Below, in pieces: positions 5,035 to 61,551 of a stretch of 64,000 nucleotides of DNA; the stretch's first letter is position 1, and each line of letters starts with the position of its first letter. The position numbers and the translations under genes were made by a program. The DNA comes from a bacterium (lineage in GTDB: Bacteria > Patescibacteriota > Minisyncoccia > Minisyncoccales > GWA2-46-15), in NCBI GenBank assembly GCA_030693425.1, contig JAUYAM010000005.1, positions 12,950 through 76,949 of the forward strand, written 5' to 3'. The notes under the pieces are model-generated. The model had not been told where the DNA came from and made no database searches. It was given only the letters and a program-made list of their open reading frames with translations.

Positions 5035-5960
5035 ATCTCGGAAATCAAGAGCTCTAAACCCTGCCGGGGAGAGATTTTCCCGGTTTTTATTTTCAGATCG
5101 ATTTCTAGAATCTTGGAATAGATTTTCTTTAATCTCGAGAAAGCAAATTTCTGGGCGAGAAAATAGCACTTCCTGGCAACAAAATCATTGAGCCCGGAAT
5201 TCCTTAAAGGCTTGCCTTTCTCTAAAAGGTCTTTGACTATCAAGAGATTCCGGAATTGGTAATTGATCATCGCCAAAAGATACGCCGGCGAATCCCCTTC
5301 GTCAAAATGCTGGCCAGTTAATTCTAGGGCTTTCCGCCGGTCCTGGGTAGCGACGGCGTCGATGGTTTTGAAAATATTGGCCGCGACCTCTGGCGTTGCC
5401 AATAGCTCAACGTCTTCTGGCTCAATCTTTTTACCTTTTTTAAAACTGGCTAGTTTTTTCAGCTCGTTCGAAAGCCTCCAAGAATCATTGCTAAAATAAA
5501 CGACCAGTTTTTCAATGGCTGATGAGCTGATTTCAGCTCCCAGTTTCTCAGCCTCTTTCTTGAGCCATTGTTTTAAAGATTGCCCGTCCAACAGCTTGAA
5601 CTCCTGGAATTTAGCGGTTTTCGTCAGAAAGCTGAAGAGACTGCCGCGACGGTCTAGATCCCCGGGTTCAAAGAAAACCAAGATGTCGTCGCCTAGATTC
5701 CGTTTGTTTTTGATCATGTAGTCCAGAAAATCCTTGCTCAAATCAGAGTTCAAAAAGACGTTCTCTAAGATGAATAGTTTTCTCTCGGCAAACATCGGAA
5801 CGGTTTCCAGCTTTTCTTTGAAAGCAAGAAATTCGTCTTCCTGGAAATCGCAGTAAAATAAATTGAGTCCGCTGCGGCGGACTTTCCGATACTGGTCAAT
5901 AATTTCATTGAGCTTTAACCTGGCCCGAAAACTATCTTGGCCGTAAAGAAAAATTATCAT
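5031..5960 (-). CDS. holA: DNA polymerase III delta subunit
   Basis: MIIFLYGQDSFR... N-terminus; size and helical C-terminal half typical of HolA. Start moved from 6041 to the internal ATG at 5960 to remove the overlap with the upstream receiver gene. Confidence 0.75.
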   Translation of the reverse strand: MIIFLYGQDSFRARLKLNEIIDQYRKVRRSGLNLFYCDFQEDEFLAFKEKLETVPMFAERKLFILENVFLNSDLSKDFLDYMIKNKRNLGDDILVFFEPGDLDRRGSLFSFLTKTAKFQEFKLLDGQSLKQWLKKEAEKLGAEISSSAIEKLVVYFSNDSWRLSNELKKLASFKKGKKIEPEDVELLATPEVAANIFKTIDAVATQDRRKALELTGQHFDEGDSPAYLLAMINYQFRNLLIVKDLLEKGKPLRNSGLNDFVARKCYFLAQKFAFSRLKKIYSKILEIDLKIKTGKISPRQGLELLISEI

Positions 5961-5994
5961 CTGTTTTATGAAGTTTTTTGGGGTGCCAAAGGTT

Positions 5995-6363
5995 CTACTT
6001 GAGAATAGCGGTGATCTTTTCAACGATTTCCCCCGGAGCAAAATGAGCCTTGATCAGATAATCGGTCGCTCCGAGCTTTAATCCCCGCTCAATGTCTTCT
6101 TTCTGGCCGAGGTTCGAGAGAATTATCACCGGGATCCCGGCCGTCTCTTGATCCTGCCTAATTCTGGTCAGGGCCTCAAAGCCGTCGATGCCGGGAAGGA
6201 TCAAATCCAATAGAACCAAGTCTGGTTTCTCAGACTTGATGGCCTTGACCCCGCTCTCGCCGTCGGTTGCCTCGGAAATTTGATAACCCTCGTTCGTTAG
6301 TTTCCTGATGATTAACTCCCTTAAGAATTTGTCATCCTCGACAATTAGAATCTTTTTAGGCAT
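5995..6363 (-). CDS. single-domain response regulator (CheY-like receiver)
   Basis: 122 aa. ILIVEDD acidic pocket, phospho-acceptor context DLVLLDLILPG, conserved LIK lysine. No output domain. Confidence 0.9.
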   Translation of the reverse strand: MPKKILIVEDDKFLRELIIRKLTNEGYQISEATDGESGVKAIKSEKPDLVLLDLILPGIDGFEALTRIRQDQETAGIPVIILSNLGQKEDIERGLKLGATDYLIKAHFAPGEIVEKITAILK

Positions 6364-6431
6364 ATTATTTAACTCTTTATTAATTCCACTTTTAAGAATT
6401 TTCGACCCCTAACATACGTTCTTATTAAGCT

Positions 6432-6800
6432 TTACTCCCCGAATAAACTCTTTACTTTTTCAGCCAACTCCTGGGGGTCAAACTCCGTCTTTATCAGCCA
6501 GTCTTTAGCTCCCAATTCCTTGATCCGGCTGATCTCCACCGGCTGGCCGGAATTGGAAATGACGATCAGGGGAATCTTTTTTAAATTATCGTCTTTTCGA
6601 ATCTCTTCCATAACCGAAAACCCGTCCATTTTGGGCATAATTAAATCCAGCAGGACCATGTCCGGCCTTTCTTCTTTCATCTTTTTCAAACCTTCCTCCC
6701 CGTCTCTCGCCAGGGAAATCTGGTAGCCACGGGCAACCAGCTTCCTTTGCAGCAGATCCAGCATAATCTCTTCATCCTCTATGATTAAGATCTTTTTCAT
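6432..6800 (-). CDS. single-domain response regulator (CheY-like receiver)
   Basis: 122 aa. ILIIEDE, DMVLLDLIMPKMDG, SNSG, LIK. Paralogue of 5995..6363. Confidence 0.9.
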   Translation of the reverse strand: MKKILIIEDEEIMLDLLQRKLVARGYQISLARDGEEGLKKMKEERPDMVLLDLIMPKMDGFSVMEEIRKDDNLKKIPLIVISNSGQPVEISRIKELGAKDWLIKTEFDPQELAEKVKSLFGE

Positions 6801-6878
6801 AAAATTAAAGTGGGGTGATTTCTTATTTAATATGGCTGTTTTAATTATAGCAGAAAACGGGCAAGGATAAAAGCTATT

Positions 6879-8441
6879 TTATTGTTTAGCCTTGGAATCC
6901 GCTTTTGGCAAAGTGAAATAGAAAGTCGTTCCCTTGTTCTGTTTTGAAGTAAAGCCGATTTTCCCGCCGTGGCTCTCGATGATATTCTTTGCCATATAAA
7001 GGCCGAGGCCGCTGCCGGCCGGCTCGGTCAGGACGGCTTCGCTGGCGCGGAAGAATTTGGTAAAAACCCTTTTTTGCTCGTTGTCGGCAATGCCAATGCC
7101 CGTGTCCTGAACTTCTGTCCTGACTTCGTTGGCCGTTTCTTTCAAGGAAACGGTGACTTTGCCTCCTTTTGGTGTGTATTTAAAAGCGTTGTCTACCAGG
7201 TTTTGGACGACCAACTTTAATTTTTCCTCGTCAGCGAAGACCCGAATGGGTTTTTTGGCCGGCTTAAGGAATTCGAGTTTTATCCCTTTATTCCTGAAAT
7301 CGCTGCCGATGAACTCGATTGTCGACTGGCAAATCTCCACCATATCGGCCAAGACCGGATTGATAACGTACTTGCCCTCTTCAATCCGCGCCAGGTTCAG
7401 AAGGTCGTTGATAAGAGTGATCATTCTTTCGTTCGATTGATAGGTTTTCTCGACGATGTCTTTCTGTTCTTTGGAAATCTCCCCGATGTCGCCGTCCAAA
7501 AGCATTCTCAAGCTCCACTTTATCGCCGAAAGAGGAGTTCTGAGCTGATGGGCGGCCAGGGAAACGAATTCCGTCTTGAGTCTTTCGATCATCTTTTCCC
7601 TGCTGACGTCGTGCAAGACCACCAGATCGCCCAAGTCGCTGGCGCCGCTTTTCATCGGTATCGCTGAAACCTCAAAGATAATCTCTTTTGTGACGGCAAA
7701 CTCCTTCCTAAAAACTTCCTCGATACTCTCTCCCAGAAAATTGATCAGAGATTTTACTTCCGGAAAACCGGCAATCTCTTTAACCAATTTGCCTATTAAT
7801 TTTTCTTTACTAATTTTAAAAAAGTCTTCAGCCTTGGGGTTTATCAGTGTCAATCGATGATTCTTATCAAAAAAAAGGAGGCCGTCGCTGAAGTTGGTAA
7901 TGACCGCCTGGGTCTTATCTTTTTCCTCTTCGGCCCCGCGTCTTGCTTCTTCAGTGTCTTCAAGGATGTTCAAAAGGGCTGCCTGAACTTTTCTTAATTC
8001 CTCCTCGGTTTTCTTGATGCCGCTCAAATTAAAAAGCCCTAAAAAGTAGCCTATTGGTCTTGACTGCTCGTCAACACGAACCCTGGTGAAAACTTGAGTG
8101 ATTATGGCGCTGCCGTCTTTTCTCAATATCGACAGCTCTTTAGCGGCAACCACCCCTTTAGAAAAAGTCTCTTTGGCTAATTTGGCAACCTCTTGTTTAT
8201 CAAAAATCTTTTCAACCGATTCGCCGATAATCTCTTCGCTGGGAAAACCAGAAACTTTTTCAAAGGCTGGGTTTGTCTCTAAGATTACCCCCAAGGGACT
8301 GACAAAACATATGGGCAAGGGGGAAAAATTTAAAAGACCATTGATATAGTCTTCTAAGGACGCTAAGTCCGTCAACAAAAGAGAAATCTTTTTGTCTTTG
8401 TCTTCTCCTCTAACCAATCTTCTAAAGTCAAAAGGGTTCAT
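6879..8441 (-). CDS. PAS-domain sensor histidine kinase
   Basis: 520 aa. Two PAS-like segments, H-box SLAAHQLRTPL, N-box VDNAFKYT, G-boxes DTGIGI and GSGLGL. Confidence 0.9.
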   Translation of the reverse strand: MNPFDFRRLVRGEDKDKKISLLLTDLASLEDYINGLLNFSPLPICFVSPLGVILETNPAFEKVSGFPSEEIIGESVEKIFDKQEVAKLAKETFSKGVVAAKELSILRKDGSAIITQVFTRVRVDEQSRPIGYFLGLFNLSGIKKTEEELRKVQAALLNILEDTEEARRGAEEEKDKTQAVITNFSDGLLFFDKNHRLTLINPKAEDFFKISKEKLIGKLVKEIAGFPEVKSLINFLGESIEEVFRKEFAVTKEIIFEVSAIPMKSGASDLGDLVVLHDVSREKMIERLKTEFVSLAAHQLRTPLSAIKWSLRMLLDGDIGEISKEQKDIVEKTYQSNERMITLINDLLNLARIEEGKYVINPVLADMVEICQSTIEFIGSDFRNKGIKLEFLKPAKKPIRVFADEEKLKLVVQNLVDNAFKYTPKGGKVTVSLKETANEVRTEVQDTGIGIADNEQKRVFTKFFRASEAVLTEPAGSGLGLYMAKNIIESHGGKIGFTSKQNKGTTFYFTLPKADSKAKQ

Positions 8442-8580
8442 TTTAAATCTTTCTCGCTAAAAGGTTATCTGAGGCCGCCTGATGAATGCTCCGCAACTTG
8501 TTGCGGAGATGAAAGGCGACAATAAAAATAATAAATACTTTGCAGAGAAGCTCCCTCGCAGATTGCTGCGATTGGGAGCT

Positions 8581-9198
8581 TCATTTCCATTTCAAAAAAT
8601 ATTCGTGGTAGTTGTCTCCCTCAAAAGTGCATTTTCTTTCTTCGGCAGTTACTTTTACTTTCATGGTCATCTCTAAAATCTTGGAAAAATAACCTAGAAG
8701 ATTATAACAGTGGATTTTATGAAGACTAAAATTCTCCAGGCGCAGAATGGCATAGCCCCTATCCATATTAAACTCAATTATTTTCAGGTCGCCGACGCTA
8801 TAATGCTTCCTCCACATTTTCGGCGCCTCTGCAACTGTCTGCTGCGGGGAAACAAAGTATTTAAGGAAAACTTTCAGGAAAATTGAGAACTTTACCGCCG
8901 TCTCGCCAATCTCAATAAAGGTATTTTTATCGTAATTGAAGAGTTCGGCAATCGCTGCCATTGAAAGAGCGTCGAGGCCTATCGGGTAAAAATCCATGGT
9001 TTTGATCTCTTCGTACTTCAGGGGGTACCCGAGTTCTGCCATCTTTTCTTCCAATCTTTTTAAACCTTCCCGGCCCTCCCTTTTCAAAATAAACTCCCAG
9101 TCAACCTTTAAAGTTACCCCCCTGGCTTCTCCAGGGATATTCATGAACTTTTGAGCTGTTGCTCTAGTTATTTTTTCTCTTTCCATGTTATAACGCAA
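8581..9198 (-). CDS. hypothetical soluble protein in the signalling cluster
   Basis: 205-aa ORF lying between the kinase and the HAMP gene on the same strand. No family recognised. Confidence 0.5.
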   Translation of the reverse strand: MRYNMEREKITRATAQKFMNIPGEARGVTLKVDWEFILKREGREGLKRLEEKMAELGYPLKYEEIKTMDFYPIGLDALSMAAIAELFNYDKNTFIEIGETAVKFSIFLKVFLKYFVSPQQTVAEAPKMWRKHYSVGDLKIIEFNMDRGYAILRLENFSLHKIHCYNLLGYFSKILEMTMKVKVTAEERKCTFEGDNYHEYFLKWK

Positions 9199-9315
9199 GG
9201 TATATCGGGCATTCTGCCCGCTATTAAAAATTGATGATAATTATCTCCATTAAAAAACACTTTGTCTCCTTAACTTTTTCCAAGGTCAATTCTTGGTTCA
9301 TTTTCTTCTTGGCAA

Positions 9316-10305
9316 TTAAGCTTTGTCTTGAGAATTATTGTCCCGGCTAGCCTCGAACGGCTGGCCAAGTTCCTCTTCTAATTTCTTAATTTCTTTTTTT
9401 AAATCGACCATTTTCAGCTCGCGGTCGACTGCCAAACGGTTAAATCTTTCGAGTTCTTTCATCTTTCCCTGAAGATCTTCTGTCCTGGCTTTTACCTGTT
9501 CTTCAAGGCTATTGGCCAAATCCTGAAGCTCCCTGGTCCTAGCCGCTACCCTGACTTCTAAAACCTCTTTCGCCTCTTCCAATTTTTGGCGAGAATCCTT
9601 GAGGTCTCCAAGCATTTCGTTAAAAGTTTCCGCCAAATCCCCAATCTCGGTTCTCGGGCTGGTTTTGATCCTGACGTCGAGATTTCCCCGCCTGACGTCC
9701 TCGCAACTGGCGGTAATCTCTCTGATCGGATCGACGACGCTTCTCAAAATGACGACCATCGCTCCCGTTCCCAAAAATAAAGCCAGCAGGACCACTAAAA
9801 GATACCGCCATAAAAGCCTGCTCATTAAAATCTGAGTCTCTCTGAAAGAAAAGCCGATCCAGATCGCCTGGTTTTCGTAGCTCGGATAGATAAGCGCCTT
9901 GATGTCTTCTCCGCGAAGAGTTTCGTCCCTAATCAGACTTTTTTCCGACTTGATGACGTTGGCAATATCTATGTCTTTAAGCTTTTTGCCGATTTCGCCT
10001 TCAAGAGTGCTCTGGTGGATTTCTCCTGTGGATTTTACGATTCTGATGAAACGAACGTCTTTGAATTTGGCCAGACCGGCGATCAGTCCTTTTTCCGAAT
10101 CTTTCAAGAGGGACATGCGGTAAAACCAGGAAGGAGAGCCGACCGTTTCCTTGATCGCCTCGGCCAGCTTTATCTTTTCCTCAATGCCTGCCTTGAAGAG
10201 ATCTTGCTGATGGCTGGTGATTGAAAAGTAAATCAAAACGCTGGCCACCAGAAAAGAGGTTGCAAAAATGCCGAAGATAATGCTGTACAGAGAGTACTTT
10301 CTCAT
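9316..10305 (-). CDS. membrane protein with extracytoplasmic domain, HAMP domain and coiled-coil tail
   Basis: 329 aa. N-terminal TM, ~130-aa loop, second TM, HAMP (PIREITASCEDVRRGNLDVRI...EIGDLAETFNEMLGDL). A heptad-rich tail follows and no output domain is visible. Confidence 0.75.
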   Translation of the reverse strand: MRKYSLYSIIFGIFATSFLVASVLIYFSITSHQQDLFKAGIEEKIKLAEAIKETVGSPSWFYRMSLLKDSEKGLIAGLAKFKDVRFIRIVKSTGEIHQSTLEGEIGKKLKDIDIANVIKSEKSLIRDETLRGEDIKALIYPSYENQAIWIGFSFRETQILMSRLLWRYLLVVLLALFLGTGAMVVILRSVVDPIREITASCEDVRRGNLDVRIKTSPRTEIGDLAETFNEMLGDLKDSRQKLEEAKEVLEVRVAARTRELQDLANSLEEQVKARTEDLQGKMKELERFNRLAVDRELKMVDLKKEIKKLEEELGQPFEASRDNNSQDKA

Positions 10306-10342
10306 ATAGCCCCTAATTATTTATCTTATACCACTCAATTGG

Positions 10343-11248
10343 CTACGGCAATTTTGACAAAAGGCTGAAAAACTGCAAATCCCGGAAATGCTCTGCAACC
10401 TTAAGGCGATCATAATCTTTCCAGCGGCAGGTTCCAAGGTTGAAATCGATTTTAACATTGCAACAGATCTCTGCCAATTTCTTGCTCAAAAAAGCTTGTT
10501 CTTTTTGGCTGACGAGTTTTTCGAAAACCGAGGCTTTTATCAACTCCTCGGTTGCTTCCTGCTCTATGAGAGAGTATAGGTTTTCCAAACTCTGAAAACT
10601 GGTGAGCAGCTCGGTGGCTGTCTTTTCACCGATCCCAAAAACCCCGGGGATGTTGTCCGAAGGGTCTCCGCGCAGGGCCTTGAAATCAACCAGCTGACCC
10701 GGGCTAAGACCCTTATATTTTTCCCGAACTGCTTTTTCGTCATAGAGGGTAGTCTGGCTGATGCCCTTTTTAAGAATCAATGCTCTGACTTTTTCGTCTA
10801 CGAGCTGAAGGACATCGTTGTCGCTGCTCAAAACAATGGTTTTCAAATCCGGAAACTCTGGGCTGTCTTTGGCAAGGGTGACAATGGTACCGATAATATC
10901 GTCGGCCTCAAAACCCTGTTTCTCAAAAATCTGCACCCCAAAAGCTCCGAGAATCTCTTTGATCGTAGGGATTTGCAAGTAAAACTCTTCTGGAGCTCTT
11001 TCTCTCTTGGCTTTATAGCCAGGAAAAGCCCGGTGGCGGAAAGTCGGAGCAGCCAAATCAAAGGCAACGGCAACAGAGTCCGGTCTTAACTCCCTCAGAG
11101 CCTTAAAGAAGACGGTGAAGAACCCGTAAACGGCGTTGACTAATCTGCCGTCTTTGGTTTTCAGCGGCGGCAAGGCATGATAAGCGCGATGGATTAGCGA
11201 GTGGGCGTCGATAACGATTAAAAGCCGGTTTTCGTCTTTTGTCTCCAT
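10343..11248 (-). CDS. 5'-3' exonuclease (FEN / Pol I N-terminal domain family)
   Basis: 301 aa. Motifs: LLIVIDAHSLIHRAYHA, GFEADDIIGT, LSSDNDVLQL, H3TH motif GDPSDNIPGVFGIGEKTA. Confidence 0.9.
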   Translation of the reverse strand: METKDENRLLIVIDAHSLIHRAYHALPPLKTKDGRLVNAVYGFFTVFFKALRELRPDSVAVAFDLAAPTFRHRAFPGYKAKRERAPEEFYLQIPTIKEILGAFGVQIFEKQGFEADDIIGTIVTLAKDSPEFPDLKTIVLSSDNDVLQLVDEKVRALILKKGISQTTLYDEKAVREKYKGLSPGQLVDFKALRGDPSDNIPGVFGIGEKTATELLTSFQSLENLYSLIEQEATEELIKASVFEKLVSQKEQAFLSKKLAEICCNVKIDFNLGTCRWKDYDRLKVAEHFRDLQFFSLLSKLP

Positions 11249-51018: not shown

Positions 51019-51094
51019 CGGGGCGTGGTGTAATGGTAACATGCACCCTTCGGGAGGGTGAGATTTCTGGGTTCAAATCCCAGCGCCCCGACCA
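51019..51094 (+). tRNA. tRNA-Pro (anticodon CGG), CCA encoded
   Basis: Hand-folded cloverleaf: C1-G72 acceptor CGGGGCG/CGCCCCG, anticodon arm CACCC-TTCGGGA-GGGTG (G37), T-arm CTGGG-TTCAAAT-CCCAG, then ACCA. Confidence 0.9.
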
Positions 51095-52316: not shown

Positions 52317-52763
52317 ATGGTTGGTCAAAATAATAATTTGAGGAAGGTCGAAACCAGAATTAACCAACACCTTTTCGTCATTTGCTCGATCGTCACCCTG
52401 GCGACGATGGCTCTGATGGCGATCGATTTTTTCACCCGGGGCAGTTTTTTGCCAGCGCAGTTTAACCTTTTTTATCTGGCGGTCGTTTTGGTCTATTCTT
52501 TGCACAAAGAACTCTTGAGGTGGTTGGGCGATAAACAAGAAAAGCGCCAGGGAGAAATTTTTGTCTACGGCTGGATTTTGTTGACGACCCTGCTATATGT
52601 AGCCAATTTTTTCAGCAAGGGATATTATAGTTTTTCAAAAGAAGGGTATCCGGTCGGCACCTTGAGGGACATTTCTCTTTTGACGGTGGAAATCCTGATT
52701 GTTTTTATCCTGACGCGGTTTTTGAAACTATTGGAAGTTATTCGGCATAGAAAAAAGCCCTAA
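52317..52763 (+). CDS. hypothetical integral membrane protein
   Basis: 148 aa with ~4 hydrophobic helices. No family recognised. Confidence 0.5.
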   Translation: MVGQNNNLRKVETRINQHLFVICSIVTLATMALMAIDFFTRGSFLPAQFNLFYLAVVLVYSLHKELLRWLGDKQEKRQGEIFVYGWILLTTLLYVANFFSKGYYSFSKEGYPVGTLRDISLLTVEILIVFILTRFLKLLEVIRHRKKP

Positions 52764-52774
52764 ACGCTTACGCG

Positions 52775-52882
52775 TCGGGCTCGGCAGAAATCCGTCAAAG
52801 GATTTCTGCATAGAGGGCTCTATACGCAAACCATAGGGGTTTGCGTCGAGCCCGACAGAAATTTCATTTCTGTTTAGGGGCC
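52775..52882. ncRNA. tRNA-abutting nested-hairpin element, copy C (three-hairpin version)
   Basis: TCGGGCTCG-[GCAGAAATCC gtcaaa GGATTTCTGC]-ATAGAGGGCTCTAT-[ACGCAAACC atagg GGTTTGCGT]-CGAGCCCGA-[ACAGAAAT ttc ATTTCTGT]-TTAGGGGCC. It overlaps the tRNA-Ala 5' end. Confidence 0.6.
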
Positions 52883-52948
52883 CATGGTCCAGTGGTAAGA
52901 CGCCACATTCGCATTGTGGAAACGGCAGTTCGAGTCTGCCTGGGTCCA
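52878..52948 (+). tRNA. tRNA-Ala (anticodon CGC)
   Basis: Hand-folded cloverleaf: GGGCCCA/TGGGTCC acceptor with a G3:U70 pair, anticodon arm CCACA-TTCGCAT-TGTGG, T-arm GGCAG-TTCGAGT-CTGCC. CCA is not encoded. Confidence 0.85.
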
Positions 52949-53096
52949 CAACGAAATAAGTTTGCAAAGCAAATTTAAACGTTGTAAGAACGTAAAAATT
53001 GTCAAACAATTTCGTACGTTCCACCAAAACTATCGGGACATGGCGGGGGCAAGTTCGACCTACCCCGTAGCTCCGCCAGGGGCGGATGCTTCGGGG

Positions 53097-53168
53097 TTCT
53101 GGCTGGGTCCATAAAATAACGGAGGCGGGTTGTAGAGGCGGGAATTCAATTCTCCCCGGGTCCACAAC
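53097..53168 (+). repeat. two partial copies of the tRNA-Ala 3' end
   Basis: CTGGGTCCA (53103-53111) and GGGTCCACAAC (53158-53168) repeat 52941-52952. The second is preceded by a degenerate T-arm-like GGGAATTCAATTCTCCCC. Confidence 0.6.
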
Positions 53169-53182
53169 ATATTTTTTGTTTA

Positions 53183-53965
53183 TTGAATGCGGCGCCAATC
53201 ATGAATTTACCAAATCATATTGTTATTATGCCCGACGGCAACCGGCGTTGGGCAAGAAAGAAGGGGTTGCCTCCTTTTTTTGGTCATCGCCAAGGGGCCA
53301 AGACACTTGAGAAAATTTTAAAGGCTGTTTTAGAATTAAAGATTCCTTATTTTACTTTTTGGGGAACCTCGCTTGATAATGTTACCAAAAGGTCATCTTC
53401 GGAAGTTAATTTTTTATTCAAGCTTTTTGAGCAGCATTTTAAAAAATTGGCCAGGAGCAAAGAAGTCCATCAAAATAAAATTAAGATCAATGTTATCGGC
53501 CGTTGGAGAGAATTATTTCCTGAAAGTGTAAAGCGGGTGATGGAAGAAGCGATTTTAAAAACCAAAGATTATAAAAATTATCAATTAACCTTTTTAATGG
53601 CTTACAGCGGGATTGATGAAATGACGAGTGCAATCCAGAGGATTGCTAAAATCAAGAATCAATTCTTCGATAAACTTAGAATTAATCCCGAGCAAAGTCG
53701 AGTGGGTCAAAAATCAAAATTCAAAATTGATGAAAAATTGATTAAGAACAATCTCTGGACAAAAGATTTGCCGGCGGTTGATTTAGTCATTCGTACTGGC
53801 AGCGAACAGGATAATTGGTCCCATTTATCATCAGGAGTGATGATGTGGGACGTGGCTGACGCTCAGATATATTTTACTAAAACTCTTTATCCTGATTTTT
53901 CCGTGGCGGAATTTAAAAAAGCCGTAGAGCAATATAGCCAAACAGAAAGAAGAATGGGAAAGTAG
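53183..53965 (+). CDS. uppS: isoprenyl transferase (undecaprenyl-diphosphate synthase family) with degenerate in-frame repeat insertion
   Basis: 260 aa. HIVIMPDGNRRWA, FWGTSLDN, LVIRTGSEQ. The first ATG is at 53201. Confidence 0.9.
   Translation: MNAAPIMNLPNHIVIMPDGNRRWARKKGLPPFFGHRQGAKTLEKILKAVLELKIPYFTFWGTSLDNVTKRSSSEVNFLFKLFEQHFKKLARSKEVHQNKIKINVIGRWRELFPESVKRVMEEAILKTKDYKNYQLTFLMAYSGIDEMTSAIQRIAKIKNQFFDKLRINPEQSRVGQKSKFKIDEKLIKNNLWTKDLPAVDLVIRTGSEQDNWSHLSSGVMMWDVADAQIYFTKTLYPDFSVAEFKKAVEQYSQTERRMGK
53654..53728. repeat. degenerate heptamer-flanked insertion in-frame in uppS
   Basis: aagaatcaattc-ttcgataaacttagaattaatcccgagcaaagtcgagtggg-tcaaaaa tcaaaat tcaaaat. It encodes KNQFFDKLRINPEQSRVGQKSKFK. 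Confidence 0.55.
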
Positions 53966-54117: not shown

Positions 54118-55410
54118 ATGGACTTAAAATCGTTTACAATCGCCATCAATCAGATTTCCGAAGAAAGGGGCATACCTAGAGAAAAAGTTATTGAAACCAT
54201 TGAACAAGCTCTAGCCTCGGCTTATAAAAAGGATTACGGCAAAAAAGGCCAGATGCTTAAGGCAAAGCTGGATTTAGACACCGGCGAAATCAAGGTTTGG
54301 CAGGTGAAGTTGGTCGTCGACGACAAGATGATTTATTCCGAGAAAGAGTTGGAGGAGATGAAAAACTTGCCGAGGTTAGAACCCTTTGGTTCGAGAGAGG
54401 AAATCGAAGCCGAAAAAAAAGTCAGGTTTAATCCCGAAAGGCATTTGCTGATCGCCGAAGCCAAAAAGATAAAAAAGGGAGTAAAAGCCGGAGAAGAATT
54501 AGAGTTCCCTTTGGAGACGAAAGGAGCTTCGTCTTTCGGAAGGATCGCCGCCCAGACGGCAAAACAAGTGGTCTTGCAGAAGATCAAGGAGATTGAGAAG
54601 GAAACGGTTTTCTTCGAGTTCCAGGCAAAGGAAGGCGAGGCGATTTCCGGAATCATCCAACGGATCGAAGGCAGAAACATTTTTTTGAATATCGGCAAAG
54701 CCTTAGGAATTCTAACCAGGGAAGAGCAGGTGCCCGGAGAGTTTTACCGGCTCGGCCAGAGGCTGAAAGTCTATCTTCTGAAAACCGAGAGCACTCCCCG
54801 CGGGCCGGTTATTTTTCTTTCCAGATCCCATCCGAAACTGATTTCCAAGCTCTTTGAATTGGAGGTTCCGGAAATTGCCTCCGGCCAGGTCCAAATAAAA
54901 TCAATCGCCAGGGAAGCCGGTTCCCGATCGAAGATCGCCGTAGTTTCAAACGACGACAGAATCGATCCGATCGGCGCCACTGTCGGCCAGAGAGGCACTA
55001 GAGTGATGACGGTCATCAGCGAGCTCGGCGGAGAGAAAATCGACATTGTCCATTGGTCGGAAGACCCTCAAGAGCTGATTGCCAACGCTCTCAGTCCGGC
55101 CAAGGTTTTGGAAGTAAAAATCAAAGAAAAAAATACGGCTCTCGCAATTGTTCCTGAAGACCAGCTGTCTTTGGCTATCGGCAAAGACGGCCAGAACGTC
55201 AGGCTGGCAGCCAAGCTGTCCGGCTGGAAAATCGACATTAGGAACGAAGCCGAAGTCGGAGGAGAGCCAGAATCGGACAAAGACGAAGAGGTAAAGCCTG
55301 AAGGAAAAGAAGCTAAAGTGAAAGAAAAGAAACCGGAAAAGACAATTTCAAAGAAAGCCAAAACTTCTTCTGAAAAAGAGGAGAAAAAAGTAAAAAACAA
55401 TAATTCATAA
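54118..55410 (+). CDS. nusA: transcription termination/antitermination factor NusA with Lys/Glu-rich tail
   Basis: 430 aa. N-terminal domain, S1 ([21 protein letters not shown]), two KH domains ([15 protein letters not shown]; [15 protein letters not shown]). Confidence 0.95.
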
Positions 55411-55411
55411 T

Positions 55412-57445
55412 ATGCTAGCCATTCCAATCGTTATCTCCTTTTTAGCCCTAGGCTTTGCCTTTTATCTGACTCTCTGGGTTAAAAAATGTTCCCAGGGAAC
55501 AGACAAAATGAGGGAGATCTTTGAAATTATCAAGCAAGGGGCAAATGCTTTTCTGAAAACACAATATCAGACCATTGCTGCAATCGCCGGCCTGCTAGCC
55601 TTGATTTTATTAGCGGCTTACGGCTTTAGCGGAAACTGGATTTACGGTTTTCAGGTTTCGGCAGCTTTCATATTCGGAGCCGCTTGTTCTCTTTTTTCAG
55701 GATTTATCGGCATGTGGATTGCCGTCAGGTCTAACGTTCGGGTCGCCAGCGCGGCTCAAACCAGTTTTTCTAAAGCCTTAACCATTGCTCTTAGGGGAGG
55801 GGCGGTTTCTGGAATAACAATTGTGGCGATGAGCCTTTTAGGAATCAGCAGCCTTTACCTCATCTATGATTTTTTTGGCTACGAGGTAGTCAGCATCCCC
55901 TCTTTGATTGTCGGTTTTGGATTTGGAGCTTCTTTGGTTGCTCTTTTTGCCCAATTGGGAGGAGGAATTTACACCAAGGCCGCCGATGTCGGCGCCGACC
56001 TGGTGGGAAAGATCGAAGCCGGCATTCCCGAAGACGATCCCAGAAATCCGGCGGTCATTGCTGACCTGGTCGGAGACAATGTTGGCGACTGCGCCGGCAG
56101 AGGGGCTGATCTTTTTGAGTCAACGGCTGCTGAAAATATCGGCGCCATGATTCTAGGAGTAGTTTTATTCCCCCATTTTGGAATCAACGGCATCCTTTTT
56201 CCCCTGGTGGTGCGCGCCTTTGGTCTTCTTTGCAGCATTGTCGGCATTCTGGCGGCTAAGGCCAAAGAAACCGACGAGCCGATGAAAGCTTTGAATAAGG
56301 GCTATTTTGTGACGAGCTTTTTATCTGCCATAGCTTTTTATTTTGTGACCATGGAGATGCTGGGAAATGTTTTGTTTTTCTATGCAGGATTGGTGGGCAT
56401 TTTAGCCAGCCTTGCCTTTGTTTTTATCACCCAATATTATACCGAAGCAAAGTACCGGCCGGTAAGAGAAATTGCCCGGGCTTCTGAAACCGGCCACGCC
56501 ACCAATATTATCACTGGATTTTCAGTCGGGTTAGAGTGCACGGCCGCTACCGTAGTTACTATTTCCTTGGCTCTTATGGGGTCTTTCAAATTAGGAGCCA
56601 TGACCGGTTTTGAGGGAGGAGGGCTTTATGGCACCGCTGTTGCCACTATGGGAATGTTAGCCACGGCTGCCTATATCTTGGCCATGGATACTTTTGGCCC
56701 GATCACCGATAATGCCGGAGGCATTGTCGAAATGTCAGGAGTGCCTCAAGAAGCTCGAAAGATTACCGATAAGTTAGACTCTGCCGGGAATACGACAAAA
56801 GCTCTGACAAAAGGCTATGCCATGGGAAGCGCCGCTTTAGCAGCCTTTTTGCTTTTCTCGGCATACTTGGAAGAAGCAAAATTAACGATCGTGGATTTAA
56901 CCAAGGTAGAAGTTTTTGTAGGCGGATTTATAGGAGCAATGCTGATTTTTCTTTTCAGTTCTCTCGCCATCAGGGCTGTCGGCAGAGCCGCTTTTCTCAT
57001 AGTCAACGAAGTTCGCCGGCAGTTCAAAGAAGATCCCGGGATTATGGCGGGAAAGAGCAAGCCAGATTATTCTAAATGCATAGACATTACCACCAGAGGG
57101 GCTTTAAAAGAAATGATTTTGCCAGGATTATTAGCTGCCGGCATTCCGGTGGCAGTTGGCTTGATTTTAGGAGCAGAAGCCGTGGCCGGCCTGATAATGA
57201 TAGGAACAATTGTTGGCGTTCTTTTGGCAACGGTAATGAATAATGCCGGCGGGGCCTGGGACAATGCCAAAAAATTCATCGAGGCCGGAAACTTGGGCGG
57301 GAAAAAATCCTTTGCCCATCAGGCGGCAGTTACCGGAGACACCGTCGGAGATCCTTTTAAGGATACGGCCGGTCCGTCTCTGCACGTTCTGATCAAGTTG
57401 TTGGGAACTTTGACCTTGGCTCTGGCGACTTTGTTTGTCAGGTAA
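55412..57445 (+). CDS. hppA: membrane-bound ion-translocating pyrophosphatase
   Basis: 677 aa. [85 protein letters not shown]. Confidence 0.95.
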
Positions 57446-57451
57446 CAACTC

Positions 57452-59344
57452 ATGCTTTATTTTCCTATAGTCGTCTCGTTTTTCAGTTTGGTTTTCGTCT
57501 TTTTTCTGATCAGGCAAGTTCGGAAGATTTCTGCTAAAGCAGATCCAAAAGTTGGGTTTTTTCAGAACGTCTGGGAGGAAACTTTTCTGAAAAGAGAGTA
57601 TCGAATGATCGCCGTCGTCGCTCCCCTGTTTTTTTTAATTCTCTGGACGGCATTCGGTTTTAAATCCGGACTCGGTTTTTTAGTCGGAGTTTTGGCTGCG
57701 GTCATAGTCGGACTTTTGGGGAAAGCGGCTCTCTATGGCAGTGATTTTAGAGGAATAGAAACAGCGGGAAAATCCCTAAAAACCTCTTTCAAAAGCAGCT
57801 TGGCGCTCGGGCTTTCAGTCGTCGGCATCGGTCTTTTGGCTGTTTCGGTCTTTTGTTTTTTTACTCACGACTTAAAAGTTTTAGTTTCATTGTCTCTGGG
57901 AGGAAATCTGATTTCGGCTTTCGGCAGGATCATTTCAGGAATCTATTTCGGAACGGTCAGCATCAGAAAAGATCTGGCCGACAATCCCGAAAAAGAAACT
58001 CTTGAAGATAATCTTAAGAAGACCGGGGCCGGCAGCGGGATTAACAGATCTATTGCCGCGGCGGTGGATCTCTTTGGGACTTATGTTATTGTTCTGGTTT
58101 CGGCGGTGATTCTGGCTGAGACTTTATTTCCGGGAAATGCATCGCTGGCGTTTTTGCCGATTCTTCTGGCGGCGATAACGATTCTTGCCGCCGTCGTCGG
58201 CAGCTTTTTTGTCGGCTTTGGCGAAAACCGAGAGATAATCGGAACTTTTCACAAATGGCTGGGCGTGTCTATTCCAATAGCAGCCATCGGTTTTTATCTG
58301 GCGATCAGGAAAATTGATTTGCCGGCGTCTCTTCCGATTTCAGGAAGCGGGCTTTATCTTGCTTCGCTGGCCGGGTTGGCGGTTGCCGTCGGCATTTTCA
58401 TTGCCGCCATTTACTTTGCTTCGACAAAGCGGAAACCGGTGAAAACGGTCGCTTCGGCTTCACAAATCGGTCAGGACGCAAACATTATTGTAGGTTTAGC
58501 GGTCGGGATACAGTCAACGATTGCGCCGGCAGCCTTGGTTTTCTTAGGAGTTTTTCTTTCTTTCTTGGCAGCCGGGATTTACGGAGTTGCCCTGGCAGCC
58601 GCATCCGTGATTTCTTGGGCCGCAATCGCAGTTTCTATCAGCGTCTTTTGCCGCCTTAGAGATAATTTTGCGGGTTTTTCCGGAACTGCCGAGACTATTG
58701 AGGCTATGGCCGGGACTTATGCTGTTGTTTCAGCGAGTCTGGCTGCTCTAATTCTTTTTTTCGCCTTCAACCAGGAATTAATTTCTTCCGGGGCCAGATT
58801 TCAAATTTTTCTGGATGAGCCAAAAATTATTGCAGGGTTATTTTTAGGCAGTCTGCTTCCCTGCGCTTTTACTTTTTTACTCGTAAGCTTTATTGGCAGG
58901 ACGGCCGGCAAAGTTACAGATGAATTTAAGAATTTTTCTTACGAAACCAAAGAGCAGGAAAAGCCGGAATTTAGAAAGTTAGCAGAGGCGATTGCCACGG
59001 TTGTATTCAGGCAGGTGCCCGTTTTCGGCTTGTTGCCGGTTTTTCTCCCGGTCGCTGCCGGCCTTATCTTCGGCCCGTTGGTTTTAGCCGGGGTTTTGAT
59101 CGGCTGTCTTGTTGCCGGCCTGCTTCTGGCAATTTCTATGATTTTAGGAGGAGCCGTCTGGAATAATGCCAGAGGGTATATTGAGCAAGGCAATTACGGC
59201 GGCAAAGGAAGCCCAGCTTGCCAAGCGGCAATCACCGGCGCCGCCGCAGGCAATTTCTATAAAGATGCGGTCGGGCCGGCCTTGAGCTCAATGATCAAGA
59301 TTGTCAACATCGTCGCTCTGCTAATCGTTAACTTTTTGGTTTAG
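57452..59344 (+). CDS. divergent M-PPase paralogue lacking most catalytic acidic residues
   Basis: 630 aa and colinear with hppA (IYFASTKRKPVKTVASASQIGQDANIIVG versus [29 protein letters not shown]). The signature motifs read SGIYFGTVSIRKDLADN, GAVWNNARGYIE and GAAAGNFYKDAVGPA. Confidence 0.8.
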   Translation: MLYFPIVVSFFSLVFVFFLIRQVRKISAKADPKVGFFQNVWEETFLKREYRMIAVVAPLFFLILWTAFGFKSGLGFLVGVLAAVIVGLLGKAALYGSDFRGIETAGKSLKTSFKSSLALGLSVVGIGLLAVSVFCFFTHDLKVLVSLSLGGNLISAFGRIISGIYFGTVSIRKDLADNPEKETLEDNLKKTGAGSGINRSIAAAVDLFGTYVIVLVSAVILAETLFPGNASLAFLPILLAAITILAAVVGSFFVGFGENREIIGTFHKWLGVSIPIAAIGFYLAIRKIDLPASLPISGSGLYLASLAGLAVAVGIFIAAIYFASTKRKPVKTVASASQIGQDANIIVGLAVGIQSTIAPAALVFLGVFLSFLAAGIYGVALAAASVISWAAIAVSISVFCRLRDNFAGFSGTAETIEAMAGTYAVVSASLAALILFFAFNQELISSGARFQIFLDEPKIIAGLFLGSLLPCAFTFLLVSFIGRTAGKVTDEFKNFSYETKEQEKPEFRKLAEAIATVVFRQVPVFGLLPVFLPVAAGLIFGPLVLAGVLIGCLVAGLLLAISMILGGAVWNNARGYIEQGNYGGKGSPACQAAITGAAAGNFYKDAVGPALSSMIKIVNIVALLIVNFLV

Positions 59345-59393
59345 AGCATCCCACGGCCTTTACTAAAAGGCAAATTTTTGCTATATTGTTTTT

Positions 59394-59978
59394 ATGAATC
59401 TCATTCCAACCGTAATTGAAAAATCTCAATTTGGCGAAAGAGCCTATGACATCTATTCAAGGCTTTTAAAAGAAAGGATTATATTTTTAGTCGGGCCGAT
59501 CAGCGACGTTTTGGCAAATTCAATCATTGCCCAAATGTTATTTTTGGATTCCAAAGACTCGGGTAAGGACATTCAGCTTTACATCAATACCCCGGGAGGA
59601 TCGGTGACAGCTGGCTTGGCGATCTATGACACCATTCAGTATATAAAAGCCGATGTCTCGACTGTCTGTCTCGGGATAGCGGCTTCGATGGGAGCAACCT
59701 TGCTGGCGGCGGGAAAGAAAGGCAAAAGATTTGCCCTTCCCAACTGCGAAATCCTGCTGCATCAGGTAGCCGGCGGGGTCAGCGGCCAAGCTGTTGAAAT
59801 TGAGATAACCGCCAGGCAGATTCTTAAGATAAGGGAAAAGCTGAATGAGATTCTATCAAAACATACCGGTCAGCCGTTGGCGAAGATTGAGAAAGACACC
59901 GATCGCGATTTTTATCTTTCCGCCGAAGAGGCGCAAACCTACGGTTTGATCGATAAAGTCATTAAAACCAAGGTTTAA
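59394..59978 (+). CDS. clpP: ATP-dependent Clp protease proteolytic subunit
   Basis: 194 aa. [19 protein letters not shown], catalytic [14 protein letters not shown]. Confidence 0.95.
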
Positions 59979-60021: not shown

Positions 60022-61551
60022 ATGGAACAATTACTCTATATTATTGTCGCGGCTTTGGCTTTAGCCGCAGGCGCGGTCTTGGGGTATTTCGCCCGCCAGT
60101 CGATCGCCAAGAGGAAACTCGGCACCATCGAGGAGAAACTCGGCAAGATGATTTCCCAGGCAAAGGCCGAGGCGGAAACGATCCTGGCCGAATCCAGAGT
60201 TAAAGCTCAAAAGCTGCTCGAGACGACCCAGAAAGAAACGGAAACCCGCCACCAGCAGATCTTTAGGGCGGAAGGCCTGCTTTTGAAAAGAGAAAATCTT
60301 TTGGAAGAAAGAATAGACCAGATCGAGGAGCGCGAACAAGACTTCATCGAAAAGGTGGAAAAGCTGAAGGCGGTGAAAAAGAGCATCGAAGAATTGGAAG
60401 CCAAGACAAAAGCCGAACTGGAAAGAGTCGCTGGCCTTTCGGGCGCAGAAGCCAAAGAAGAGCTGTTGAAAAAAGTGGAAGCCGAGTCTCAGCGGGAAAT
60501 TCTCGAGAGAATGAGAAAGCTCGAGGAGAACGGCCGCGACCAGTTCGAAAAGAAGGCCAAGGAGATTCTGGCTGTGGCTATCCAAAAACAGGCTCTTTCC
60601 CAGGTCCAGGAGATTACGACAACCACGGTTGCCCTTCCCAACGACGAACTCAAAGGCAGAATTATCGGCAAGGAAGGAAGGAATATCAGAACCCTGGAAA
60701 AGCTGACCGGAGTCGAGGTGATCATTGACGAAACTCCTCAAGTTCTGGTCATTTCCGGGTTTGATCCGGTCCGCCGACAGATCGCCAAGACCGCTCTTGA
60801 AAAGCTGATTCAAGACGGAAGAATCCAGCCGGCCAGAATAGAGGATGAAGTCGCCAGAGCAGAATCTGAAATTTCCAAGCAAGTTAGGGACGCCGGAGAA
60901 GCCGCCATTTACGAAGTCGGCATCGTCGGCCTAGACCCGAAATTAGTTCAGCTTTTGGGCAGGTTAAAGTTCAGAACCAGTTACGGCCAGAACGTCCTTT
61001 TGCACTCGATCGAAGTTTCTCATTTGGCAACCGCTTTGGCTGATGAAGTCGGAGCCAACGCCCAGGTAGCCAAAAAGGCCGGCCTTTTGCACGATATCGG
61101 CAAAGCAGTCGACCAGCAGATTGAAGGTTCTCACGTCGATATCGGCGTCAAGATTTTGGAGAAGTTTGGCGCCGAAAAAGAAGTGATTTCAGCCATGAAA
61201 TCCCACCACGAAGATTATCCCTACGAAAATCTGGAAGCCTTATTGGTCCAGGCGGCAGACCAGATTTCCGGAGCCAGGCCCGGAGCCAGGAAAGATACGG
61301 CCGAAAATTACTTAAAGAGATTAGGGGATTTAGAAAAGATCGCCACCAGTTTTCCCGGAGTTGAAAAAGCTTGGGCTTTGCAAGCCGGAAGAGAAATCAG
61401 GGTTTTTGTCAAGCCGGAAGAAATTGACGATCTGACCGCCAAAAAAATGGCCAAAGAAATCGCCCAAAGGATCCAGGAAGAATTAAGGTATCCCGGGGAA
61501 ATAAAAGTCAGCTTAATCAGGGAATTAAGAATAGTTGAACACGCCAGGTAG
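60022..61551 (+). CDS. rny: ribonuclease Y
   Basis: 509 aa. N-terminal TM, coiled coil, KH (GRIIGKEGRNIRTLE), HD (HSIEVSHLA..LLHDIGK). Confidence 0.95.
   Translation: MEQLLYIIVAALALAAGAVLGYFARQSIAKRKLGTIEEKLGKMISQAKAEAETILAESRVKAQKLLETTQKETETRHQQIFRAEGLLLKRENLLEERIDQIEEREQDFIEKVEKLKAVKKSIEELEAKTKAELERVAGLSGAEAKEELLKKVEAESQREILERMRKLEENGRDQFEKKAKEILAVAIQKQALSQVQEITTTTVALPNDELKGRIIGKEGRNIRTLEKLTGVEVIIDETPQVLVISGFDPVRRQIAKTALEKLIQDGRIQPARIEDEVARAESEISKQVRDAGEAAIYEVGIVGLDPKLVQLLGRLKFRTSYGQNVLLHSIEVSHLATALADEVGANAQVAKKAGLLHDIGKAVDQQIEGSHVDIGVKILEKFGAEKEVISAMKSHHEDYPYENLEALLVQAADQISGARPGARKDTAENYLKRLGDLEKIATSFPGVEKAWALQAGREIRVFVKPEEIDDLTAKKMAKEIAQRIQEELRYPGEIKVSLIRELRIVEHAR

Follow-up and report, generated by a model that had tools for sequence, protein, structure and literature searches.

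Why would a bacterium keep, directly downstream of a complete membrane pyrophosphatase (M-PPase), a second full-length M-PPase homologue whose hydrolytic centre is gone? The question is raised by a 64,000-nucleotide (nt) stretch of a Patescibacteriota genome (contig JAUYAM010000005.1, assembly GCA_030693425.1), which is referred to below as the window and from whose first letter all coordinates are counted. On its plus strand, open reading frame (ORF) 1 (55412..57445, 677 amino acids (aa)) encodes a complete type A M-PPase that is presumed to be an active, pyrophosphate (PPi)-driven H+ pump. After a 6-nt spacer read from the sequence (CAACTC, plus strand, 57446..57451), it is followed by ORF2 (57452..59344, plus strand, 630 aa), a degenerate type B M-PPase homologue with a retained helical-bundle fold and a lost hydrolytic centre. 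The arrangement of two co-oriented ORFs 6 nt apart is as given in a preliminary description of this DNA, and the colinearity noted there is borne out by an alignment of ORF1 residues 23-676 with ORF2 residues 23-630 (28% identity, E = 3e-62). ORF2 is probably a pseudoenzyme that arose by in-place replacement of a type B by a type A enzyme and whose scaffold is still under purifying selection.

For the comparison of active-site residues, Vigna radiata numbering was rebuilt from HMMER alignments, and the Ballesteros-Weinstein table and residue lists were taken from PMC6882861. In that source, the M-PPase hydrolytic centre comprises D5.61, D5.65, E5.76, D5.77, D6.35, D6.39, D6.43, D11.57, D15.61, D16.31, D16.35, D16.39, K5.58, K15.64, K16.38, and a helix-12 Asn. 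Eighteen hydrolytic-centre positions were scored in 70 active relatives (7 type A and 63 type B), and each was 100% conserved. ORF1 keeps 18/18. In ORF2, 12 of the 18 positions are lost (K5.58G, D5.61S, K5.69N, D6.26N, D6.35 deleted, D6.39S, D6.43R, N12.43E, D15.61N, K15.64R, D16.31A, and D16.35N) and six are kept (D5.65, E5.76, D5.77, D11.57, K16.38, and D16.39). Four further residues are replaced: D11.50 (by Ser), K12.50 (by Gly), E6.53 (by Gly), and S5.43 (by Asn). The coupling funnel and ion gate, to which D11.50 and K12.50 also belong, are thus only partly preserved, with R159 (R5.50), D206 (D6.50), K604 (K16.38), the neighbouring D605 (D16.39), and K616 (K16.50) kept.

The first of the affected segments, all on the plus strand, is what remains of the helix-5 motif, of the 5-6 lid loop, and of the DNVGD region of helix 6 (ORF2 residues 162-211, 57935..58084), in which K5.58, D5.61, K5.69, D6.35, D6.39, and D6.43 are lost and D206 is kept at the end. 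Here, the 18-residue motif of ORF1 (183-200) corresponds to SGIYFGTVSIRKDLADN in ORF2 (162-178), and GDNVGD of ORF1 corresponds to GSGINR. The cytoplasmic segment of helices 11-12 (residues 400-425, plus strand, 58649..58726) lacks about 17 residues, the GNTTKA region among them; D11.57 is kept, whereas N12.43 and K12.50 are not. The helix-15 motif reads GGAVWNNARG (566-575, plus strand, 59147..59176), and GGAWDNAKK of ORF1 is matched by GAVWNNARG (567-575), which contains the D15.61N and K15.64R substitutions. In the segment that holds the helix-16 motif and the gate lysine K616 (596-619, plus strand, 59237..59308), the 11-residue motif of ORF1 is matched by GAAAGNFYKDA (596-606), with D16.31A and D16.35N alongside the kept K16.38 and D16.39. 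The motif comparisons drawn in the preliminary description are thus correct, and its wording that ORF2 is stripped of catalytic aspartates holds in substance, with 12/18 positions lost, while being slightly overstated, as 6/18 are kept. Its expectation that PPi hydrolysis is unlikely is supported by the residue check, since most of the Mg-PPi-binding residues are gone; from its sequence, ORF2 is almost certainly unable to hydrolyze PPi by the known mechanism. That acidic residues are instead kept at shifted positions was considered and rejected: there is no Asp or Glu in ORF2 187-205 and the helix 11-12 segment is deleted by about 17 residues, so that a shift of the alignment cannot restore the active site, including the three helix-6 aspartates.

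The relatives of ORF2 date these losses. The K+-independence signature has disappeared from ORF2, which has Glu at 12.46 and Ala at 12.49. Among the ORF2 orthologues, K12.46 is still present and T12.49 is found in three of four (Ala in locus L003), which shows descent from a K+-independent enzyme. All five degenerate orthologues are without D5.61, D6.39, D6.43, D11.50, and K12.50. This shared loss implies that the inactivation is ancestral to the clade and predates its divergence.

Despite these losses, ORF2 remains a recognizable member of the family. It matches the Pfam H_PPase profile (PF03030) over positions 2-645 of 645 with 320.7 bits against a cutoff of 29.7, and it falls below the NCBIfam equivalog cutoff in all 12 models matched (best score of 365.8 versus 859). 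The AlphaFold2 (AF2) model of ORF2 has a pLDDT of 84 and a pTM of 0.88, with low confidence limited to residues 101-104, 179-194, and 497-499, and values below 50 at 179-194. In a Foldseek search with this model, all 36 matches in the Protein Data Bank (PDB) at E <= 0.001 are M-PPases (TMq 0.83-0.91), and the TM-score against TmPPase is about 0.9. The predicted structure of ORF2 is therefore that of an M-PPase, with the 16-helix, two-ring fold kept.

The position of ORF2 among its homologues indicates where it came from. Its best database matches fall into two groups: degenerate proteins (P0002, P0004, and P0006; 44-48% identity) and fully catalytic 660-aa proteins (P0003, P0005, and P0007; 38-42% identity). 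Genes of the first group each lie just downstream of an ORF1 orthologue (L001, L002, and L003), in the order nusA-A-B-clpP-rny in L002 and nusA-A-B in L001 and L003; between the A and B genes there is no spacer in L003 and one of 23 nt in L001. Genes of the second group are the sole M-PPase genes between nusA and clpP in their genomes. Two such loci, L004 and L011, match the tandem genomes in their closeness to the window (78-86% identity for NusA, ClpP, and RNase Y), and both carry a single, fully catalytic type B enzyme in the same slot and gene order as ORF2. No sequence from outside the degenerate clade is closer to ORF2 than these two enzymes (P0003 on L004 and the L011 gene; 40-45% identity), and type B M-PPases share the termini of ORF2 (N-terminal MLYFPI..VS.FSL.FVFFL and C-terminal NIVALLIV.FLV). 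In a neighbour-joining tree with 100 bootstraps, the degenerate clade (ORF2, its three orthologues, and P0121) is recovered in 99/100 replicates and nests in type B beside L004 and L011. The split between types A and B is recovered in 100/100 replicates; the type A clade includes relatives from outside the Patescibacteria at 55-65% identity, and active type A and type B members are about 48% identical. Based on the genomic context, the nesting in type B, and the A|B split, ORF2 is the resident type B enzyme of the lineage, now displaced, and ORF1 is a separate, anciently diverged type A enzyme. The description of ORF2 as a paralogue in the preliminary account therefore stands for a dead, conserved M-PPase homologue beside a live one, and does not stand for a duplicate of ORF1. 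A recent tandem duplication of ORF1 is rejected, as ORF2 is 38-45% identical to single-copy type B enzymes versus 28% to ORF1.

Recurrence of the active/degenerate pair, suggested as a check in the preliminary description, was found in at least three further contigs with the same layout and a monophyletic degenerate B. Together with other loci, these provide a series of states: B only (many loci, L004-L067); A with a near-intact B (L175, with 16/17 catalytic residues, one frameshift, and substitutions in otherwise conserved motifs); A with a B that is heavily degenerate yet intact (the window, L001, L002, and L003); and A only (L095-L097). The simplest reading of this series is that type A entered the nusA-B locus and that B became redundant, decays, and is eventually lost. 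Alternatively, A and B may have stood in tandem ancestrally and been lost differentially, a history from which the same present-day states would be expected. In the more distant relative L175 (9072-11073, on a 516-kb contig, ERZ25039515, with a NusA 67% identical to that of the window), one frameshift at a TTTT run following GDNVGDC splits type B into ORFs of 216 and 458 aa; either the gene is at an early stage of decay or the frameshift is a homopolymer error of long-read sequencing. A tandem of another kind is seen outside the Patescibacteria in L158, where adjacent M-PPase genes at 5953-8136 (type A-like, 727 aa) and 8254-10803 (divergent, 849 aa) are both motif-intact. Tandem M-PPases thus also exist with both copies apparently active.

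ORF1, in turn, has the features of a working enzyme. It matches the Pfam H_PPase profile end to end with 866.4 bits and passes the NCBIfam models NF001953 (1006 versus a cutoff of 783), NF001960, and TIGR01104, and it shares 92-93% identity with its orthologues in the three further tandem contigs. It carries the K+-independent signature K12.46/T12.49 (K463 and T466), along with E6.53 and Q5.50, and it matches the K+-independent H+-PPase of Pyrobaculum aerophilum (8B37) with E = 2.7e-153. The signature, together with 8B37 as the best solved relative, indicates that ORF1 is of the K+-independent, H+-pumping type. NCBIfam and source annotations label ORF1 as 'sodium-translocating' or 'K(+)-stimulated'. 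Type A is widespread in Patescibacteria (72-93% identity), 11 type A proteins are at least 92% identical to ORF1, and in L095-L097 it is located right after nusA as the sole M-PPase within 6-kb flanks. Among the matches listed in a metagenome scan with ORF1, three close type A loci were found, all A-only. At position 5.50, a coupling-funnel residue, Gln is present in all seven type A sequences, A-only genomes included (Q181 of ORF1, window 55946-55966; R242 in Vigna), and Arg is present in all type B enzymes examined and in all solved structures; the family-wide conservation of R5.50 is only 86% (review table, PMC6882861). A complementation of Q5.50 in ORF1 by the Arg kept in ORF2 was considered and rejected, because Q5.50 is a general type A trait that also occurs in A-only genomes.

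To gauge selection on ORF2, the ratio of nonsynonymous to synonymous substitution rates (dN/dS) was calculated for tandem orthologue pairs by NG86 with bootstrapping and also by YN00. Across the four tandem contigs, identity is 92-93% for ORF1, 48-70% for ORF2, and 76-81% for the flanking genes. NG86 dN/dS is 0.21-0.29 among ORF2 orthologues (bootstrap 95% range of 0.16-0.36, with no replicate at 1) and 0.04-0.065 among ORF1 orthologues. Active type B enzymes, which keep 18/18 positions versus 6/18 in ORF2, have a dN/dS of about 0.07 (0.07-0.10 for L004 versus L011). Within ORF2, the ratio is 0.31-0.46 in catalytic-side segments and 0.18-0.26 elsewhere. When one ORF2 orthologue was randomly mutated to the observed nucleotide divergence in 2000 runs of a neutral simulation, 12-23 stop codons per pair were expected and 0/2000 runs were stop-free; the observed number of stops is zero. 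The indel events among tandem ORF2 orthologues (9-12 per pair) are all in frame. Divergence is concentrated in loops 5-6, 11-12, and 13-14, where the pairwise identity of the degenerate orthologues is 0.09-0.14 versus 0.7-0.9 in active type B (0.11 versus 0.93 for loop 5-6), and the conservation of the transmembrane segments TM1, TM7, and TM9 and of loop 9-10 equals or exceeds that in active enzymes. The divergence of the degenerate orthologues, which the inactivation predates, corresponds to a synonymous distance of about 0.9-1.4. The preliminary description had named a decaying pseudogene as one outcome that would overturn its interpretation. With no stops, in-frame indels, a dN/dS upper bound of 0.36, and intact copies in three other contigs, ORF2 is not a pseudogene; it is an intact ORF on which purifying selection, focused on the membrane core, is relaxed but still real. 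ORF2 thus combines the attributes by which pseudoenzymes are recognized, namely a kept fold, lost catalytic residues, purifying selection, and conservation in relatives. Between tandem genomes, synonymous divergence (dS) of the M-PPase genes (0.7-1.4) is clearly below that of the flanking nusA, clpP, and rny genes, for which it exceeds 2 and is saturated. This reflects either a constraint on codon usage within the M-PPase genes or an exchange of the A-B cassette among these genomes after their divergence.

Degenerate M-PPases are also found beyond this clade. A profile built from four degenerate sequences was run against 1.84 billion representative proteins, and about 17 further clusters were retrieved in which full-length members have >= 5/14 catalytic positions replaced; the representative H_PPase matches with E <= 1e-10 numbered 5,656. 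Such forms are rare: across all fetched loci, the catalytic residues are complete in 168 of 180 M-PPase ORFs. Solo degenerate genes are seen in L090 (126-2126, in the order nusA-degenerate-tig), in L094 (8001-9977, P0132, nusA-degenerate-clpP-rny, with the gate residues D6.50 and K16.50 also lost), in L093 (8001-9986, between gyrB and gyrA), and in L092 (8001-10043, near nif genes), with no second M-PPase within the fetched flanks of any of the four. In the complete genome of Ca. Methylospira mobilis (CP135727.1; L091:8001-10130), a 709-aa homologue (WP_315700353.1, P0147) has 10/17 catalytic positions replaced and is encoded directly after a phosphofructokinase (PFK)-family gene, with no second M-PPase within 8 kb. 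Three proteins of the Methylospira lineage (82-85% identity) share eight of the ten substitutions exactly, with the remaining two positions replaced as well in each protein; the nearest canonical Methylococcaceae relatives are 48-49% identical. Together, the solo clusters and the Methylospira lineage indicate that dead M-PPase homologues arise repeatedly and can be stable. A broader proposal, considered unlikely here, is that 'pseudo-M-PPases' form a recurrent, unrecognized class kept for a non-hydrolytic role, with ORF2 serving as the silent subunit of a mixed dimer with ORF1. No literature on inactive, paralogous, or pseudoenzyme M-PPases was found in a search of open-access papers and preprints.

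In the window, the two M-PPase genes are embedded in a conserved nusA-PPase-clpP-rny block. According to the ORF list, its first gene is nusA (54118..55410, plus strand), separated from ORF1 by 1 nt, and its downstream genes are clpP (59394-59978, plus strand) and rny (60022-61551, plus strand). This synteny recurs in L002, L004, L011, L094, L096, and L175, and nusA is located directly upstream of the M-PPase gene in most Patescibacteria loci fetched. ORF1 ends with a TAA stop codon and ORF2 begins with ATG, 10-12 nt upstream of which a weak AGG lies within the 3' end of ORF1. A search of the sequence between ORF1 and ORF2 revealed no terminator-like site, and a promoter-like site is present just upstream of clpP (59359-59387). 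In L001 (8049-9461), clpP is absent after the degenerate M-PPase gene, and in its place are a reverse transcriptase gene (RVT_1, minus strand) and a bAvd-family gene, a pairing typical of a diversity-generating retroelement. Further upstream in the window, genes for transfer RNAs (tRNA-Pro(CGG), 51019-51094, and tRNA-Ala(CGC), 52878-52949) are located upstream of uppS, and a minus-strand ORF of 156 aa (52728-53198) that overlaps the tRNA-Ala gene is probably spurious.

On the favoured explanation, a type A gene (ORF1) would have taken the slot just upstream of type B in the nusA-PPase-clpP-rny block and made the type B enzyme (ORF2) redundant. ORF2 would then have lost PPi hydrolysis and, with it, energized ion pumping. 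The loss predates the split of at least four genomes, in which the ORF has stayed intact since. It would still be made, being co-transcribed and probably translationally coupled with ORF1, and may act as a non-catalytic membrane protein, that is, as a pseudoenzyme. In our judgement, a selected non-catalytic role for ORF2 is fairly likely. Within that role, one that does not need ORF1 receives the larger share, at somewhat under even chances, in view of the solo degenerate homologues, and a distinctly smaller share goes to a mixed dimer with ORF1; a protein without positive function, as a slow intermediate of gene replacement, is judged a minority possibility. Several observations weigh against in-place replacement with a selected scaffold. 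The YN00 estimates of dN/dS for ORF2 are higher (0.38-0.64), and selection on ORF2 is relaxed 3-5-fold. The catalytic losses differ among orthologues, the loop deletions are independent, and P0006 has only 527 aa, a pattern that resembles drift. Of 340 columns conserved in type B, 144 are kept in the degenerate clade, 170 are lost, and 26 are shifted and then conserved, and as these 26 are mostly conservative changes, they provide no clear signature of a new function. The A-only genomes and the frameshifted B of L175 show that B is dispensable once A is present. Finally, the recovered tandem contigs that carry a degenerate B number only four, and the best 80 loci among the matches listed for GTDB species-representative genomes contain no further tandem pair, each having a single intact M-PPase.

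Much of this counterevidence is what would be expected of a functionless relic, whose reading frame and foldability are kept only because stops or misfolded fragments are harmful, through polarity on clpP and rny or as a toxic truncated membrane protein, and which is heading for deletion. The end of the replacement series in A-only genomes, the frameshifted B of L175, the heterogeneous lesions with their independent loop deletions, the relaxed selection, and the loss of half of the type B-conserved columns all fit such a fate. For a functionless protein, however, a membrane-core dN/dS of about 0.2 is low, and non-hydrophobic positions are exactly conserved in loop 15-16 (IE.GNYGG, pairwise identity of 0.74), at K16.38/D16.39, and in the R5.50-D6.50-K16.50 triad. 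Moreover, in four or more lineages ORF2 has persisted since its inactivation over a synonymous divergence of about 1, an independent lineage (Methylospira) keeps a fixed degenerate pattern, and the promoter-like site upstream of clpP implies that polarity may not matter. A relic is judged rather improbable, though it deserves weight. A different fate, a heterodimer having already been raised in the preliminary description, would be that of an obligate or regulatory heterodimer in which ORF2 pairs with ORF1 via helices 10, 13, and 15 as a permanently 'off' subunit of a built-in asymmetric dimer. M-PPases form homodimers, for which communication between the subunits and half-of-the-sites reactivity are documented (PMC10897367, PMC6882861), and such a pair would fit the half-of-the-sites model of catalysis, which makes a dead partner attractive in concept. 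The two genes lie side by side in the same orientation with 6 nt between them, this pairing is seen in four contigs, and the interface helices are kept in the degenerate orthologues (pairwise identity of 0.48-0.67). Yet the partners would come from the anciently diverged types A and B, with active members about 48% identical, and the ORF2 orthologues are mostly type B-like at published interface positions (L10.44, A10.45, F13.21, Y13.40, and F15.48) rather than type A-like (Phe, Ser, Val, Phe, and Leu). ORF2 of the window is a partial exception (I13.21, C13.40, and L15.48), with only L15.48 matching type A. The type A proteins of the tandem clade have only six clade-specific substitutions, none at a listed interface position, and these indirect checks (interface positions, column shifts, and type A clade substitutions) gave no clear signal of remodelling toward ORF1 and lent a heterodimer no support. 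In addition, type A stands without a second M-PPase in L095-L097, as does degenerate type B, without an adjacent M-PPase, in L090 and L094. An obligate or regulatory heterodimer is regarded as unlikely.

The two remaining readings would assign ORF2 a transport activity of its own. That ORF2 is still a PPi hydrolase or pump with a rearranged active site could draw on the six remaining residues (D5.65, E5.76, D5.77, D11.57, K16.38, and D16.39) and on the intact ion gate. The general base D6.43, though, is replaced by Arg, no acidic residue is found in ORF2 187-205, D15.61, D16.31, D16.35, K5.58, and K12.50 are absent, and a deletion has shortened the active-site wall formed by helices 11-12 by about 17 residues. 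All 18 scored positions are invariant in the 70 active enzymes, and the differences among orthologues at catalytic positions are incompatible with a conserved alternative site. A rearranged enzyme is accordingly given hardly any credence. The suggestion of an open channel is argued against by the hydrophobic gate positions 5.40, 12.64, and 16.54, which stay hydrophobic in ORF2, with only an A6.61S change. A sensor role, also suggested in the preliminary description, gained no support from any of the checks made.

With ORF2 viewed as a displaced type B pseudoenzyme, its relation to known systems can be described. ORF2 shares the 16-helix fold with the solved M-PPases from P. aerophilum (8B37), Thermotoga maritima (4AV3), and Vigna radiata (4A01), and ORF1 is a full member of this family. 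Unlike these proteins, ORF2 is without the Mg-PPi cage, the lid loop, D11.50, and K12.50, and R5.50, D6.50, and K16.50 are kept. It would therefore be unable to use the binding-change or pumping-before-hydrolysis cycle (PMC6882861, PMC10897367). The Methylospira homologue, which is annotated as a pyrophosphatase, resembles ORF2 in being full-length and in retaining R5.50, D6.50, K16.38, D16.39, and K16.50, and differs in being a solo gene of independent origin within a Gammaproteobacteria methanotroph M-PPase clade. In other protein families, pseudoenzyme subunits are found beside active paralogues, as in the non-catalytic alpha subunits of F1-ATPase and the heterodimeric ABC exporters with one degenerate ATP site. 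As in those systems, an impaired paralogue is kept beside an active one at the ORF1-ORF2 locus, possibly in a complex. The hetero-oligomer is demonstrated and the degenerate site is conserved in F1-ATPase and the ABC exporters, whereas a complex of ORF1 and ORF2 is hypothetical and the degenerate positions vary between orthologues.

M-PPases are treated as uniformly catalytic, and databases name the degenerate proteins 'sodium/proton-translocating pyrophosphatase'. Metabolic reconstructions that equate an H_PPase match with PPi-driven energy conservation can therefore be wrong, especially in Patescibacteria. The locus also affords a rare stepwise view of the in-place replacement of one subfamily by another, from B only, through A with a near-intact B and A with a dead B, to A only. 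If the dead copy does dimerize with the live one, the pair would be a natural M-PPase with a single active site and would offer a direct test of the half-of-the-sites, inter-subunit model and of why dimers are needed.

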